Shown: positions 14,857 through 21,513 of the stretch, piece after piece
Layout of the letters: each line of letters starts with the position of its first letter
Position numbering within the stretch: position 1 is the first letter of the stretch
From: Promethearchaeota archaeon Loki_b32
GTDB taxonomy: Archaea > Asgardarchaeota > Lokiarchaeia > Sigyniarchaeales > SOKP01
DNA: 21,513 nucleotides
Assembly: GCA_005223125.1 (NCBI GenBank)
Contig: NJBH01000049.1
Location: 1-21,513, forward strand
Direction of reading: 5' to 3'
The notes under the pieces: model-generated
The model's input: only the letters and a program-made list of their open reading frames with translations
What the model was told of the DNA's origin: nothing
The model's database searches: none
Position numbers and translations under genes: made by a program

Positions 14857-15001
14857 GGAGAGGTTACCGAGCATGGTCAAAGCCATTTTACACCAAAATG
14901 GGTCAAGACTATAGGTGCTGGACTTAAGATCCAGTGGCAAATATTCAGTTTATAACTGAATAGCCAAAAGGCCTTCGGGAGTTCGAATCTCCCCTTCTCC
15001 A
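14857..15001 (+). tRNA. tRNA-Leu(UAA) with two non-canonical introns (14881-14912 and 14941-14968)
   Basis: Acceptor GGAGAGG (14857-63) pairs with CTTCTCC (14994-15000), discriminator A. Anticodon arm CTGGA-CTTAAGA-TCCAG with TAA at 14925-27. T arm GGGAG-TTCGAAT-CTCCC. Removing the 32-nt and 28-nt inserts gives an 85-nt type II tRNA with D arm ACCGAGCATGGTCAAAGGT and variable arm GGC-AAAG-GCC. CCA is not encoded. Confidence 0.93.
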
Positions 15002-15318: not shown

Positions 15319-18300
15319 TTATCTTGTGCTCTGAATAAATAATCTTTCTTTGCTCTGTTCTTTTTCCCATTTTTTACGCTCAGAACGCAACTTGAACAAA
15401 TCTATATCTTTAAATATCAAAAATTCTTCTTTTGCTGGTATGATTCGCTCAGTCCGGTCTTTTTCCGGAGTATAAATAAGAGACTCTCCAAATTCCCCAA
15501 TATTGGCAAAAAATGAGTACGCATAAATAGATCTACGGGCATCAAAGTGAGCTGCTTTAAAATCGGCTGTGACTGGTGTGAACGCAGGATTCAGAATTAT
15601 ATCAATCGGAGGTTCGAAATTTTTTAATTCTACTCTTAAATCCATATCAAGAAAGTCTCGACAAATAACAATAACTATTCTACCATATTCTGTATTACAT
15701 ATGATCGTTTTCCGTGGTAGACTGCTAACTTCTATTCCTTCTTTAAAACGTTTTCCTTCTCCAGTACCAATAATTGCGGGGATATGTTTTTCTTGTTCCC
15801 AAAGAATACCCTCCGGTCCAAAAACTATACTAATATTTCGGTGTGTTTCTAGGTCATGAAAAGATCCTGGAACTATATACATCTCATACAATTTGGCTTG
15901 ATCTCCAATCTCTTCCAAAAGTTCTCCATAATTCAAATCAATAGTCATTTCTGGGAAGAGTAAGATATTGACACCCTCATTGTGCGCTTTTTCAATCATA
16001 GATTTGACTTTAGTTCTTACTTCCTCAACTTTGTTCTCTCTTATACAAAGAAGACCTGAAGATTTCATTTCGAATAGTTCTTTCATGATATCTCCGGTCT
16101 CAGATACACCTATTTGAGCAATACCAACTCTACATTCTCTTTTTTGAATTTTAGGATATTCTTTAAACAGATCTCTATAGATTAATTCATACTTCTTTTT
16201 ATCCATTCTTTCTATTTCAATACGCCTTTCTGCATCGCTGAACTGACGGGCTTCACTTAATCGAGGAGATTGACTACTTTCAAGTGGACAAGAAGGAGCA
16301 ACTATACCCATAATACTTCGGGAAATTGAGGGTTCTTTTATCGTGCTTAAAGCTGAAAAAAGAATTGATTCTTCCTTCTCAACCCTATTCAATCGATCTT
16401 GAACTTCTTTCTCCTTGTCTTTATACCCCGCTTTACCAAATAATTCTACCGCAGATTTTAAATACTTCGCACCTATTCCTAAAAGATTTCCTTTTTCCTG
16501 AAGATCTCTTTCTTCATCAGCTCTGATTAGGTGCCATGCCGCGTCAAAATATATTGAAGTTGCTTGAGACCAGTCAGCTCCTCTTTCAAAGCCTCCTTTT
16601 TCATATAAAGTAGCGGCTTTACTAAGTGTTACCTTAACTTTCGGGTATAATTCTTTTTTAATGTTTATTTCAATGGATTCATCAAATTTACAGCCATATT
16701 CAAGCGCTTGGCAAAAAGTTGAATTCCCAGAAGATAGTAATTTTAACTTTGTATCTGTGAAAAAATCACTGGCTTTTGCAAACAACGCTGCTGCTTCGGA
16801 AAATCTGTACGGATCATCATATTTTTCAGCAAGTTCCATATTTTCCCAAGCTCTGCACAGATAATAAACAGCTTCTAATTCCTTTCGTTCTCGTTTAATT
16901 TTAAATAAAATACATATATCTCTGAATTGAGAAGATGCAAGCGCAAATTTTTCTGCAGCTGCAATATGTTCACCTTGTTTTCCTAATATCCTTGCTTCTT
17001 CAAGGTTTATTCTCGCGTCACAATGATTCACCCTTACTTGAGCGATTTTTTCAAATTTATTAATTCTCTCTTTTTCAAATTTTTCTCTTGATCGCTGATG
17101 GGATTTTAATAATGTTTTAATTGCTTTTTCAAAGATTTTTCCTGTCTCTTTAAAACTTTCTATGGCTTTTTCGTGCTTTTCTTGTTTACTCAGTTGCTCT
17201 GCTTCTTCCAATGATATCCATCCAGAATAATAAGATGCTTCATAACCGTAACTTGGTAATTCTATTAGTATATCATAAGCTTTCTTATAAAATTCCCTAG
17301 CTTGTATATGATTTTCTCGTATATGAAACGATTTAGCTTCTTCAATAAATTTCCAAGCCTTTACATAATTAAATTTCTCATTGACTCTATTTTTGAGAAG
17401 TTTATATTTTATCATTTTCAGTGACTTATTATATGCTTCCTGAGCTTTCTTATAATTTTCTGCAGAAAGCCTAAAATTACCCAATCGATCTTCTATACGA
17501 GCTATATATTGATAACTTGCGGCTTCATAAGAAGAATATCTTCTATCAACACTTTCTTTTATTGTGTGGAGAAAAATTTCCCGTGCTTGATTTAAAATAG
17601 TAGTTTCTCCCGTTATAATTCCTAATTCCTCAAATAATAGTCCAAGCCTCATTTGATCCCCAATAGTGCCACCACGAGATAACATAGCGTAATTAATTGA
17701 TTTTTTTTGGGCATTTATTGCCTTTTTGAGGTGTGTGATCCTGTCTTCCTTCTTTTTAGCGATATCTGCAAGAGTTTTATAAGCCTTATAAAGACTAGTA
17801 TAACCACCAGCCTGAGGAAATCCTCCCTCATATTTCAATCCGAATTTTTCTGCCTGTTTTGCGTGTTGAAGCATAATTTGGGCATATTCTCCTTGTTTTG
17901 TTTTTGATTCCGTAAGATAAATAAGTTGAGAGTAAGCAAATATCAAACCTTGGTACAACCAACCTATAATATTAGGGTAATTAGGTGCACTCATCGCTTC
18001 TTTTACATGTTGGATCCCTTTTTCAGCATAGATTTTGCGTTGTGCAGTAGTAAAAATACTCATTTGGGAAGAAGTAGTATAGTAAATTGCAGGTAATACA
18101 TTTGCCATAGAGCGATTAATACTATAAGAATGTGCATAGATCTTCCCTAATTCCAGACAGTCTTTGATGTCATTAAGAATTCTCTTCTGTAGATAATTAA
18201 TTCTACCACTAAAAAGTGCAAAATAATCTATGAAAAACAGACACACAAGTATATAACATTTACTTTTCGTTTTTCTGGCAAAATTTAAAGCTTTCTCTAG

Positions 18301-19152
18301 TAATTCTATTCCCTTATCAAGATATTCATCTTGTTCTCTTTCATCTTCTACGAATTGATATCCAAAACCGCAATACCAAATCCCTTTTACCGAGTAAACT
18401 AGATTGAGAGCATAAGGATCATCTAAATTATCAATTATCGCCAAACTTTTATTACATTTTCCAAAGAATTTCTTTATGGTTTCCTTAATATAGTCATTTT
18501 TCTTAAAGTCTTTGTTACACAATAAATTGAAACCAATCATAAGTTCCATATTCAATGACTCAGACAAAATCTGAATATTTCCAATCTTTCTTGAAATCTC
18601 CCAAGCTTTAATAGCAGATTCTCCTCCTTGTTGGGCAACCCGGTTATATTCTTCTTGATTAATCTTATAACCCATGAGGAGATCTGAAACTGACGCTATA
18701 CGGCACATTAATCTCGCAAAACTCTCTTTATCACCCTCCTTGGAATAAATTTCACTTGCTTCACTGAAAAGTTTAATAGCTTGATGATATGCCTTCTGAC
18801 CTTCCATATCAGAAGTTGCGAGAAACCCACTTGTAAAAAACATTTCTGCTTCGCATTCAAGCTCCATAGATCTATTTCCAAGCTGTTTAAAGAGATTCAT
18901 TGCTTCTTTGTAGGCTTCAACAGCACTTTTAATCTGGTTAATATATTCCTCAACTGTATCTATTGTATCAGCAGCTCTGGCGTGAGCATATCCAAGATTT
19001 TTATTATTTTCAGCAGCTTTCTCGACTAATTTTTTATCCATATAAAAGTTAACTGCTTGTTTATATAATTTAACTGCGTCTAACCAATTGTAAGCTTTCT
19101 CCTCTTCTCGTGCCTTCTCTAATAAGGTTTCTTCGCTTTGTTCTAAAGTCAT
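15319..19152 (-). CDS. Giant TPR/SNAP-like alpha-solenoid protein fused to a C-terminal carbon-nitrogen hydrolase (nitrilase superfamily) domain
   Basis: About 950 aa of helical TPR-like repeats. The C-terminal ~270 aa carry RVGIAQ, LLFPE (E1068), QEKH (K1122), VICRDF (C1164), FFAN and GES, i.e. an intact Glu-Lys-Cys triad. Confidence 0.85.
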   Translation of the reverse strand: MTLEQSEETLLEKAREEEKAYNWLDAVKLYKQAVNFYMDKKLVEKAAENNKNLGYAHARAADTIDTVEEYINQIKSAVEAYKEAMNLFKQLGNRSMELECEAEMFFTSGFLATSDMEGQKAYHQAIKLFSEASEIYSKEGDKESFARLMCRIASVSDLLMGYKINQEEYNRVAQQGGESAIKAWEISRKIGNIQILSESLNMELMIGFNLLCNKDFKKNDYIKETIKKFFGKCNKSLAIIDNLDDPYALNLVYSVKGIWYCGFGYQFVEDEREQDEYLDKGIELLEKALNFARKTKSKCYILVCLFFIDYFALFSGRINYLQKRILNDIKDCLELGKIYAHSYSINRSMANVLPAIYYTTSSQMSIFTTAQRKIYAEKGIQHVKEAMSAPNYPNIIGWLYQGLIFAYSQLIYLTESKTKQGEYAQIMLQHAKQAEKFGLKYEGGFPQAGGYTSLYKAYKTLADIAKKKEDRITHLKKAINAQKKSINYAMLSRGGTIGDQMRLGLLFEELGIITGETTILNQAREIFLHTIKESVDRRYSSYEAASYQYIARIEDRLGNFRLSAENYKKAQEAYNKSLKMIKYKLLKNRVNEKFNYVKAWKFIEEAKSFHIRENHIQAREFYKKAYDILIELPSYGYEASYYSGWISLEEAEQLSKQEKHEKAIESFKETGKIFEKAIKTLLKSHQRSREKFEKERINKFEKIAQVRVNHCDARINLEEARILGKQGEHIAAAEKFALASSQFRDICILFKIKRERKELEAVYYLCRAWENMELAEKYDDPYRFSEAAALFAKASDFFTDTKLKLLSSGNSTFCQALEYGCKFDESIEINIKKELYPKVKVTLSKAATLYEKGGFERGADWSQATSIYFDAAWHLIRADEERDLQEKGNLLGIGAKYLKSAVELFGKAGYKDKEKEVQDRLNRVEKEESILFSALSTIKEPSISRSIMGIVAPSCPLESSQSPRLSEARQFSDAERRIEIERMDKKKYELIYRDLFKEYPKIQKRECRVGIAQIGVSETGDIMKELFEMKSSGLLCIRENKVEEVRTKVKSMIEKAHNEGVNILLFPEMTIDLNYGELLEEIGDQAKLYEMYIVPGSFHDLETHRNISIVFGPEGILWEQEKHIPAIIGTGEGKRFKEGIEVSSLPRKTIICNTEYGRIVIVICRDFLDMDLRVELKNFEPPIDIILNPAFTPVTADFKAAHFDARRSIYAYSFFANIGEFGESLIYTPEKDRTERIIPAKEEFLIFKDIDLFKLRSERKKWEKEQSKERLFIQSTR

Positions 19153-19249
19153 TTAGGATCATTTATTGAATAATTCTTGTTTTATTTCGATCATAACTAT
19201 TTACTATTAATTACTTTGAATGATTAATAAACATATAGTTCGATTTAAA

Positions 19250-20473
19250 ATGTTTTACTTTTTCTCAGAAGAATGATCTCTTCCCAATTCAAAATATTTT
19301 AATGATTTAGGAAATTTTGTTTGATATTATTGAAATTTAGATCTTCATAAAACAATTACCGACGGTTATGAGCTTCAGTTCCAGCTTACCGATGAAGAAG
19401 GGCAGTCTATACCAAGTCAACCGGTATGGATCGAGATCGGATGGAAACCAAAAGCGGGACTTAATTATAAGATTATCGATTGGGAAGATGAAGATGGTAA
19501 TTACTTGAATTCCGGAGCACTCGGCACCGCATGGTTTATGAACCAAGGACAAGAAGTATGTCGCGGTCCAGGAGAAGAAGGAATTTTATCACGAATGTTT
19601 ACCAAACCTGAAACTTGGGAATATTTAGATCCAGAAACAGAAGAAACTGGTGAATATTCCAGTTATTATTATAATTATCAAATGACCGATGAGATGGGAC
19701 GTGTAAACTTTGACATTTCATTTAATGAAGATTATATTGGAGAACATCATAGAATTTTTGATGAGTCTGTATTTTCTAGCGGAAGTATTACGTTTGATGA
19801 ATTAGAAGATTATCGGTTATATATTCGCGTGTGGCACACCCCTATCTTTGATATTGGTTATATGGCATTAAGTAATACAGATGACCTATTATGCTCTCAA
19901 GAAAATAATGCATTTGATTTTTCCAGAATTTCTGAATTTAACAATTACAGTTTAGAAAATACGGTATTTTACAGCGGAAGTTATGCTGAAGGGTTGATTA
20001 ACTTATATCCCGAAGATGTTATGCTTGGAGTACCAGATCTTTTGGTATATCAATACGGCTCGGAGTTAAATGATAACAATAACTTAAGAAAACCATGATT
20101 AATATTAGGATCTGTTTACATTGCATTAGCATTTGGAATTTTATTCAACTGGCTTACACTCGCTATGATTTTTGTATTAGAACCTTTACCGGATAGATTA
20201 ATCTTTAATTTTATAAATTTTCATGGGATTGTCGATCCTTATACTATGAATAGAATTATGGATATTAGTACTTCGATTTATCCTCATGAACAAACAATTT
20301 ATTACGCCGTAGCATTTGGATCCTTTGGTGCAGTTACAGATTTATTTATAGCTATATGGTATTTAGTGAATAGAGTACCGTTTAGCCCTAAAATGGGATT
20401 CTCACTTTTAATTGGAGGAGTAATGGTAGGAATTTTATTAGGATTTACGACTTGTCTACCATTTTTTCTATAA
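19250..20473 (+). pseudogene. Single reading frame interrupted by TGA codons: acidic extracellular-type fragment followed by a 3-TM segment (likely degraded or mosaic gene)
   Basis: ORFs 19505-20098 and 20165-20473 share a frame and are separated by one TGA (20096-98). The frame is open back to 19334, with further TGAs at 19331, 19322 and 19274 after an ATG at 19250. Confidence 0.5.
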
Positions 20474-20559
20474 TTTATGTCTTATTTGATTTAATTTCAA
20501 AATTTTTAAATAAGTAAAAAAAACTTTAATGTCAAACCCCACTCACTCGACAAAATAGA

Positions 20560-21513
20560 TTAGGACATCTCTAGTTGAGTCAAATTAATTTTGAATTGGG
20601 TAAAGTTTCCCGTGTCTTTTTCTCTAATTCTCCACGTTCGTCTTATTGTTGCGTATTGTGCGTTAAATTCTTTCCTGTAGGCTTCAATAAGTGGGGTTTC
20701 GCACGCTAACAGCACACTTGTAACTTTTTTTTTCGTAAAATCGATATCTAATAACTGGACATGCAGTCCTCCGTGGTTCAGAAACGCTCTTGCAACGTTT
20801 TCACGGCCCAATAGGGCTTTAAAATGGTGCTTACTACGGTGAAACAGCTGCTTTTTGGCGTTATTGGTAAACTCTAATTCCTCGACATCATAAGCTATGT
20901 ATAATCCTTCACTATAAGAATTTACTAACCGAATCCATTGTTGCCATATTTCCTCGCAGCTTAATTTGAAAGAAGGTTGTTGCCATTTGATGTTCTGAGG
21001 ATTAGATTCCAATTTTCTCCTTTTCAAGCGGCTCTGGAGTTTGTACACCCATTTTTTCACTTCTTTCTCGATTTGAGAAGATTTTTTCTCCCTTTTTGCC
21101 AAAATCTTACGAATCTGCTGAAAATCTGGTATCAAGGAGGTTATCTCCTCTCGTAAATGACGATTCTCTCTAAGTAAATTCTTTAATGCTGCAAGAAGAG
21201 TGTTCAGTGTACGAGAAACTTTCGGAGTGAACTCCATTTCCCCGAATTGTTCCAATCGTGACACAACATACTCTAAATTCGCATATGCTTCGATTCCCGG
21301 AAACATGTCAAATCGAACACCACGCGTGGAGATGGCACATTTCAGCTCCTCGCTAATGGGATGAAACAACTTGTATAACTTGTTTGAATCGGTGTATTTA
21401 CTATTATAGACAATTGAGAGTTGTTTTACAGATTTCCGAAGAATTTTCTTGAGATGCGAATCTTTCGAAGCAATGGGCTCGGCAACGTGGTTAAGGAAGT
21501 GGTACTGGCAATA
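20560..21513 (-). mobile_element. DDE transposase of an insertion sequence (CxxH type), 5' part outside the window
   Basis: The frame stays open to the window edge (YCQYHFLNHVAEP...), giving the CxxH motif seen in IS256/ISL3/IS66/Mutator-like transposases. A TNN..x.LF...K motif is present, and the region is visibly more GC-rich than the core genes. IS family not assigned. Confidence 0.78.

Follow-up and report, generated by a model that had tools for sequence, protein, structure and literature searches.

A tetratricopeptide-type solenoid fused to a DRT1-like nitrilase module in a Lokiarchaeial genome: a candidate sensor-effector family with exchangeable C-terminal modules

A solenoid, a linker and a nitrilase module on one polypeptide

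The stretch of DNA analyzed here (the window; 21,513 nucleotides, contig NJBH01000049.1 of the Asgard archaeon Promethearchaeota archaeon Loki_b32) carries on its reverse strand, at 15319-19152, an intact open reading frame (ORF) of 1277 codons followed by a stop codon at 15319-15321. It encodes a three-part protein in which a tetratricopeptide repeat (TPR)-type α-solenoid is joined by a short Ser/Pro linker to a module of the nitrilase superfamily (Table 1). The gene is single-copy in its source genome, which is 95.5% complete. An initial annotation, made from the letters of the window, had delimited exactly this ORF and had assigned to it a TPR/SNAP-like N-terminal region of ~950 residues, a Ser/Pro-rich linker and a C-N hydrolase domain with the residues E1068-K1122-C1164; all of these parts are recovered in the models and alignments described below. 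It had also known of no description of this architecture. Full-text literature searches found no account of such a TPR-nitrilase family from Asgard archaea. The members are annotated at NCBI and JGI as hypothetical proteins or as predicted amidohydrolase/TPR proteins.

Table 1. Coordinates of the gene, its parts and associated elements (positions in the window unless a locus is named)
Feature	Position	Strand	Basis or remark
Whole gene	15319..19152	-	solenoid, linker and nitrilase on one polypeptide
TPR-type α-solenoid scaffold, aa 1-937	16342..19152	-	AF2, Foldseek, weak Pfam matches
Most variable scaffold stretch, aa 121-350; candidate ligand-recognition zone	18103..18792	-	identity, dN/dS
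Conserved last scaffold third, aa 701-937	16342..17052	-	identity and many invariant residues
Conserved Ser/Pro linker, aa 938-972; ends at module-swap breakpoint	16237..16341	-	invariant residues
Nitrilase-superfamily module, aa 985-1277	15322..16200	-	AF2, Foldseek, PADLOC, PDB profile
Nitrilase catalytic codons	Glu1068 15949-15951; Lys1122 15787-15789; Glu1138 15739-15741; Cys1164 15661-15663	-	
C-terminal hexapeptide F-I-Q-S-T-R, aa 1272-1277	15322..15339	-	hallmark of nitrilase clade
Conserved upstream element, candidate promoter and operator	19205..19258	-	conservation before paralogs and TIR variant
PhoU-like 296-aa gene in other genomes	L014:3951-4841, L017:326-1216, L018:43-885, L034:11842-12732		74-96% identical between genomes

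The AlphaFold2 (AF2) model of the scaffold, computed for residues 1-985 from an alignment of 37 paralogs, has a mean predicted local distance difference test score (pLDDT) of 87.7 and is wholly helical between residues 7 and 937, with ~38 paired helices stacked as the helix-turn-helix superhelix by which TPR proteins are defined. At the level of sequence the repeats are faint. The Pfam matches all fall in the first 600 residues, with SNAP passing its cut-off (27.1 bits; cut-off 25), TPR_12 just missing it (26.7 bits; cut-off 30.1) and MIT being weak. Neither Pfam and NCBIfam nor the all-α model reveals a nucleoside triphosphatase (NTPase) or any other globular domain inside the solenoid. The best structural matches found with Foldseek are Ctr9, Ski3, subunits of the intraflagellar transport complex A (IFT-A) and LGN. 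For the giant eukaryotic TPR scaffolds (Ctr9, Ski3 and TTC21B of IFT-A) E ranges from 4e-11 to 1e-8, but template modeling (TM) scores are just 0.2-0.35 at ~12% identity; the resemblance is one that the repeat class shares in general and has no functional implication. The linker is disordered in the model (pLDDT 25-50), and nine of its positions (P941, S944, S946, G949, I950, P953, E958, S960 and S962) are invariant across the 37 paralogs, although these are less than 50% identical overall.

For the C-terminal part the fold is unambiguous. The AF2 model of residues 985-1277, based on an alignment of 48 relatives, reaches a pLDDT of 94.4 and exhibits the four-layer α-β-β-α sandwich of the nitrilase superfamily; it retrieves 213 PDB structures with Foldseek at E<=0.001, with Nit2 on top (E=3e-16). 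Glu1068, Lys1122 and Cys1164, together with a second glutamate, Glu1138, are each at least 90% conserved over the 48 relatives. The Pfam family CN_hydrolase (PF00795) matches residues 1040-1166 with merely 14.1 bits (E=0.03), which is below the gathering score of 23.2, while many close homologs do exceed that cut-off; the clade thus constitutes a divergent member of the superfamily.

Profile comparison indicates to which branch of the superfamily the module belongs. The PADLOC model RTasNitrilase, which describes nitrilases associated with reverse transcriptases (RTs), matches residues 1002-1238 (E=3.2e-11), and in a profile search of the PDB the nitrilase of the defense-associated reverse transcriptase DRT1 (9yfd) ranks first with E=2.8e-17, compared with 2.6e-12 for Nit2; the 41 PDB sequences that this search matched at E<=0.01 include no Nta1 entry. 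The two stand-alone CN hydrolases encoded elsewhere in the genome score 133 and 105 Pfam bits, compared with 14 for the fused module, and in a FastTree phylogeny that includes them for comparison the fused nitrilases form one branch (Shimodaira-Hasegawa-like support 99), with the stand-alone enzymes on its far side. An exhaustive HMMER search with the module yields 48 representatives at E<1e-30 before the next matches drop to ~1e-12. By profile, then, the module is nearest to the anti-phage effector nitrilase of DRT1, nearer than to metabolic nitrilases, and not to the two ordinary nitrilases of its own genome. The initial annotation had named DRT type 1 as a setting in which nitrilase domains occur as fused modules.

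The clade is further marked by its extreme C-terminus. Each of the 37 clade representatives ends exactly with the hexapeptide F-I-Q-S-T-R, from which none departs by more than a single conservative substitution, and its positions are individually 92-100% conserved. The last four residues (1274-1277) have pLDDT values below 50 in the monomer model. A predicted complex of two copies of the module scored 0.37 against a mark of 0.42, which speaks neither for nor against self-association.

Exchange of modules and the behavior of an accessory gene

Four different end modules are found behind the shared scaffold and linker: the nitrilase in the majority of proteins, a TIR domain, a Cys-rich zinc finger and a roadblock-like module. 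This supports the conjecture, made from the single gene, of a family with swappable C-terminal ends. The TIR_2 module occurs in five proteins, being detected in P0035 by Pfam (E=4.7e-14) and read by eye from the C-terminal sequences at L038, L040, L042 and L045; the zinc finger, with three CxxC pairs, likewise ends five proteins; and the roadblock/longin-like module of ~140 residues ends three, where its assignment is an Atlas lead (0.90-0.91) alone. NCBIfam yielded no useful match to the alternative end modules. The exchange can be followed at the level of DNA. Aligned with the window gene as far as residue 972, the gene of the TIR variant P0035 shows 84% identity (71-94% in successive segments up to residue 957); homology stops at position 16238 (residue 972), which marks the swap breakpoint. 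In one zinc-finger variant, the first strand of the nitrilase survives as a remnant.

The nitrilase module has in turn been joined to many other front ends. Within the fused clade, modules from different architectures interleave at short distances in the tree, and they are located behind a protein kinase, an AAA_16 ATPase, classical TPR_12 arrays or an α/β-hydrolase, and also in receptors with an ectodomain and a transmembrane helix and behind a head composed of a roadblock domain and an Arf/Ras-like small GTPase; in more remote relatives the fusion partners are HEAT repeats, leucine-rich repeats (LRRs) or an nSTAND3 ATPase. The GTPase-headed form comprises ~880 residues: after the roadblock-like and Arf/Ras-like domains (Atlas 0.98, TM 0.91 for the head) come the rear third of the scaffold, the linker and the nitrilase module. 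This form is exemplified by L019:3668-6310 (genome G023), similar ORFs exist in nine genomes of the genus at about one per genome, and these proteins match residues 680-1277 of the window protein at 62-64% identity; the window's own genome was found to lack this form. In the receptor-like proteins P0145, P0147 and P0149, from Promethearchaeota/Lokiarchaeota bins, a signal peptide and a long β-helix/NosD ectodomain (with PKD domains) precede a single transmembrane helix, which sits immediately ahead of an FIQSTR-type nitrilase on the cytosolic side. Taken together, these architectures show a nitrilase module, catalytically intact as judged by its residues, that passes as a single unit between many kinds of sensor.

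Separately, we note that the clade includes a myxobacterial α/β-hydrolase-nitrilase fusion ending in FVQSTR (P0161; Sandaracinus amylolyticus WP_053232411.1), which means that the module also occurs outside the Asgard archaea.

A word-indexed search for the whole protein returned 764 homologs, nearly all of them 1265-1295 residues long (mostly ~1275) and from Asgard metagenome bins, which match over their full length at 54-85% identity. Among 24 species genomes of the same GTDB genus, the number of full-length copies varies from zero to at least seven; two genomes, both 95-97% complete, have none, and others carry tandem arrays of up to five genes (e.g., at G016:C1:154.8-173.6 kb, where five genes share one orientation), copies interrupted by stop codons, and short fragments adjoining intact genes. 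Elsewhere in the order the family was encountered in three of ten sampled genera, as weak matches to the nitrilase domain alone. Across 300 genomes of the phylum it occurs in 41 of 68 genomes of family f1, 9 of 76 of f11 and 7 of 21 of f26, and the remaining 27 families contribute two of 135 genomes, both with weak partial matches. None of the window's neighbors, the tRNA gene included, recurs beside the closest homologs, which are 73-85% identical. DNA homology to them sets in precisely with the stop codon and extends to 110-200 bp before the ATG, and the homologous unit is thus a self-contained cassette of promoter and ORF. In its copy number, patchy spread and lack of synteny the family behaves as an accessory gene and not as a housekeeping gene. 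The initial annotation had named the opposite pattern, that is, a module nested among housekeeping amidases in a gene that is single-copy, syntenic and invariant in architecture across the lineage, as what would speak against its proposal; the module lies outside those amidases, and in the lineage the gene is neither single-copy, nor syntenic, nor constant in architecture.

Conservation is distributed unevenly along the protein. In paralog pairs less than 65% identical overall, mean identity is 36% for residues 121-350, 67% for residues 701-937 and 73% for the nitrilase. Between closer copies, dN/dS calculated according to Nei and Gojobori amounts to 0.3-0.43 in the front third and to 0.06-0.14 in the nitrilase and, in most pairs, likewise in the rear scaffold; for residues 121-350 the range is 0.3-0.43, compared with 0.08-0.14 in the nitrilase. 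Synonymous divergence is strongly mosaic: relative to one partner dS is 0.10 for residues 701-937 and 0.80 in the nitrilase, and relative to another a block of low dS stops at residue 700. Such a pattern points to recombination or gene conversion between copies.

The conserved DNA extends beyond the coding region. Between 30 and 110 bp ahead of the ATG lies a stretch of ~75 bp that hardly varies before paralogs of 55-57% protein identity and is kept before the TIR variant as well. In the window it contains a BRE/TATA-like box (AAAACATTATAAAT, 19243-19258) and, ~10 bp downstream of this box and within 19205-19234, an imperfect inverted repeat in which TATTAATCATT and AGTAATTAATA are separated by 3 nt. 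We consider this element a candidate promoter with operator. It is unique in the source genome. A structured RNA leader was considered and rejected: RNAalifold gives just -3 kcal/mol and one 6-bp hairpin, and since no convincing RNA structure emerges, a DNA promoter/operator is preferred. A regulon marked by the 13-mer core of the element was likewise rejected, as the three other exact matches in the genome lie inside coding sequence. As a further observation, the first two genes of the G016 array (L013:4650-4789 and L013:8715-8853) are preceded by a different conserved leader with the core GGGCAAAYTAAATAGATCCTATTTTAA, which indicates that sub-lineages of the family carry distinct upstream elements.

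What the protein may do

We suggest, with about even confidence, that the window protein is a ligand-gated sensor-effector on a single polypeptide, probably serving an immune-like function or surveillance in biological conflict. The interchange of the nitrilase with TIR, the combination of a variable front with a conserved back, the turnover in copy number and the mosaicism all fit it. The intact active site, the kinship of the module with the DRT1 effector, its distance from ordinary nitrilases and its recurrence behind other sensors likewise count in its favor. A ligand, probably a protein or peptide, would bind to the variable part of the solenoid and thereby shift the rear scaffold and the linker, both conserved, into another state. 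The nitrilase modules may then self-associate, as activity requires in DRT1 and other nitrilases, and the invariant FIQSTR tail might complete the active site of a neighboring copy, by analogy with the C-terminal lid of DRT1. The active enzyme would cleave an amide or nitrile bond in some essential metabolite or, with lower probability, in a protein, with arrest of the cell or production of a signal as the outcome. Transcription would be governed by the shared operator.

The closest precedent is DRT1 itself (UG1, of the class 3 UG/Abi RT-nitrilases), whose nitrilase is the sole close relative of the module to have been characterized. It is an abortive-infection effector that requires oligomerization and whose substrate is unknown; its conserved C-terminal residues gate the nitrilase by covering the neighboring active site as a lid (PMC13275509). 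Both proteins carry an RT-associated-type nitrilase effector domain, in one large polypeptide and C-terminal to an α-helical repeat region, with intact catalytic residues and a conserved extreme C-terminus. The window protein, however, comes from an archaeal host and is devoid of a reverse transcriptase (Pfam and NCBIfam find none, and residues 7-937 are entirely of the α-helical TPR type). Regulation by a DNA adduct cannot apply to it. Moreover, the FIQSTR tail is specific to its clade, and the nearest sequence relatives of its module are repeat-fused nitrilases (HEAT, LRR) and not RT fusions.

The second precedent is provided by the STAND/NLR-like Avs/AVAST proteins, which likewise combine a repeat sensor with an exchangeable effector in one protein, include TIR among the alternative effectors, and exhibit variable copy number and patchy distribution; relatives of the nitrilase module are, moreover, fused to AAA_16 and nSTAND3 ATPases. 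Yet the effector of the window protein is located C-terminal to the repeats, whereas theirs is N-terminal to the ATPase.

Several observations weigh against the immune-like proposal. The protein has no NTPase switch, in contrast to known STAND receptors: no P-loop NTPase (NACHT, NB-ARC or AAA_16) is detected by Pfam or NCBIfam, or in the all-α model. The linker is undocked in the model, with pLDDT below 50, and hence the model offers no structural evidence for autoinhibition; nor does it support the idea that the linker plugs the scaffold. No region of the gene reaches a dN/dS above 1 by the Nei-Gojobori method, so that diversifying selection is not shown. The neighborhoods of the family loci are mostly metabolic, and PADLOC applied to 150 neighboring ORFs gave generic cross-hits alone; no defense-island context, which the initial annotation had proposed to score, was found, again unlike for STAND/NLR systems. 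A single-protein scan found no close relative on viral contigs. Finally, the roadblock-like and zinc-finger ends and the GTPase-coupled form look like parts for signaling rather than for killing.

Many of these points favor the main rival explanation, namely that the protein is a non-immune signaling receptor, in which a solenoid, or in relatives an ectodomain, kinase or GTPase, reads a cellular or environmental cue and a small signaling molecule is produced or degraded by the nitrilase; the family would be a general input-output toolkit of Asgard cell biology. The membrane-receptor forms with their cytosolic nitrilase fit this explanation, as does the attachment of the roadblock and Arf/Ras-like head to the same rear scaffold at about one copy in each of nine genomes; the existence of roadblock-like and zinc-finger ends, the metabolic neighbors with their generic PADLOC cross-hits, the dN/dS values below 1 and the conserved operator, which suggests ordinary transcriptional control, are all in line with it. 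However, both enzymatic outputs, TIR and the DRT1-type nitrilase, are best known as immune effectors, and a range from zero to many copies within one genus, together with arrays, fragments and mosaicism, would be unusual for core signaling. We regard a signaling receptor as possible but on balance doubtful.

That the protein is a scaffolded housekeeping enzyme appears improbable. The solenoid would then recruit substrates or partners for a nitrilase that either deamidates proteins, as the N-degron amidase Nta1 does, or repairs a metabolite in the manner of Nit1/Nit2; in support of this, the fold with its intact catalytic residues is structurally like Nit2, and giant TPR scaffolds such as Ctr9 and Ski3 serve as assembly platforms. 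The module has the α-β-β-α sandwich and the Glu-Lys-Cys chemistry in common with metabolic nitrilases (Nit2 ω-amidase, β-ureidopropionase, the Pyrococcus amidase), but it aligns with them structurally at only 11-19% identity, remains below the Pfam cut-off, and is fused behind a 980-residue scaffold in a clade apart from, and far from, the genome's ordinary stand-alone CN hydrolases. That no copy was found in two of 24 genomes of the genus, although these are 95-97% complete, the multiple copies in others, the few and weak nitrilase-domain matches in other genera, the replacement of the enzyme on the same scaffold by TIR or non-enzymatic modules, and the lack of Nta1 among the PDB profile matches at E<=0.01 all argue against a housekeeping enzyme. 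We consider it very improbable that the gene is a selfish or addiction cassette, or an intracellular polymorphic toxin in kin conflict, with the cassette spreading by recombination and the nitrilase acting simply as a toxin. The self-contained homology unit ending exactly at the stop codon, the position of the window copy, flanked by a tRNA gene on one side and a multi-copy repeat on the other, and the module swapping and mosaicism would suit such a cassette. However, the loci examined share no neighbor and contain no gene for a cognate immunity protein or antitoxin, the solenoid forms have neither a secretion signal nor a domain for delivery, the cassette is not accompanied by an integrase or by terminal repeats, and it was not found on viral contigs.

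Returning to the immune-like sensor-effector, one may go further and speculate, tentatively, that the family represents a class of NTPase-free innate-immune receptors of Asgard archaea, in which a hypervariable solenoid would sense viral proteins directly and trigger a plug-in nitrilase or TIR, the nitrilase being a novel immune weapon that would destroy an essential amide-bearing metabolite, while the same output cassette would also be wired to small GTPases and membrane receptors. If so, modular receptor-effector signaling of a eukaryote-like kind would have existed in the archaeal relatives of eukaryotes. More generally, it is only recently, and in bacterial DRT1, that a nitrilase domain was shown to act as an immune effector. 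In Asgard archaea a module of this type is a widely reused output, joined to solenoids and kinases as well as to small GTPases and membrane receptors, and interchangeable with TIR. Should these proteins be receptors, they would constitute a large and unexplored sensor-effector repertoire, devoid of the STAND ATPase by which known NLR-like systems are defined, in the closest prokaryotic relatives of eukaryotes. Being small, confidently folded and recognizable by its diagnostic FIQSTR tail, the module also provides a promising handle on the question of what defense nitrilases act upon.

Surroundings of the gene

The tRNA gene that the initial annotation had placed beside the ORF was recovered as tRNA-Leu(TAA) at 14857-15001 on the forward strand, convergent with the ORF and ending 317 bp from its stop codon. 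ARAGORN calls it once two inserts, of ~32 nt in the region of the D-arm and of ~28 nt in the variable arm, have been removed; on the unedited sequence neither ARAGORN nor Rfam reports a tRNA. The insertion sequence suspected on the other side stands in part: positions 20525-21513 indeed belong to a multi-copy element, with a 97% identical copy at G000:C24:53860-54848 and a 170-bp end that recurs on C65, C53 and C10 as well as at the termini of contigs, and the window's contig itself terminates inside this element. Neither Pfam nor NCBIfam assigns a family to the 317-aa ORF of the element, and a transposase family was thus not identified by these two collections. Broken-looking frames occupy 19211-20473, between the promoter of the gene and the repeat element, and 20090-20474 is 67% identical to G000:C61:83724-84111. 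The other neighbors in the window are ordinary, encoding a DUF1015 protein, serA-like and serC-like proteins and a β-propeller protein.

Two further observations concern the loci of homologs. Directly downstream of P0003, a homolog of 85% identity, lies an MNT/HEPN toxin-antitoxin pair (Polbeta and HepT-like; L032:14285-15113), which is the sole defense-type neighbor among the loci examined. In four other genomes, a conserved PhoU-like gene of 296 residues with an AbrB/MazE-like N-terminus is convergent to the last gene of an array (Table 1), and it marks one recurrent chromosomal site of the arrays; its sole relative in the window's genome is 32% identical.

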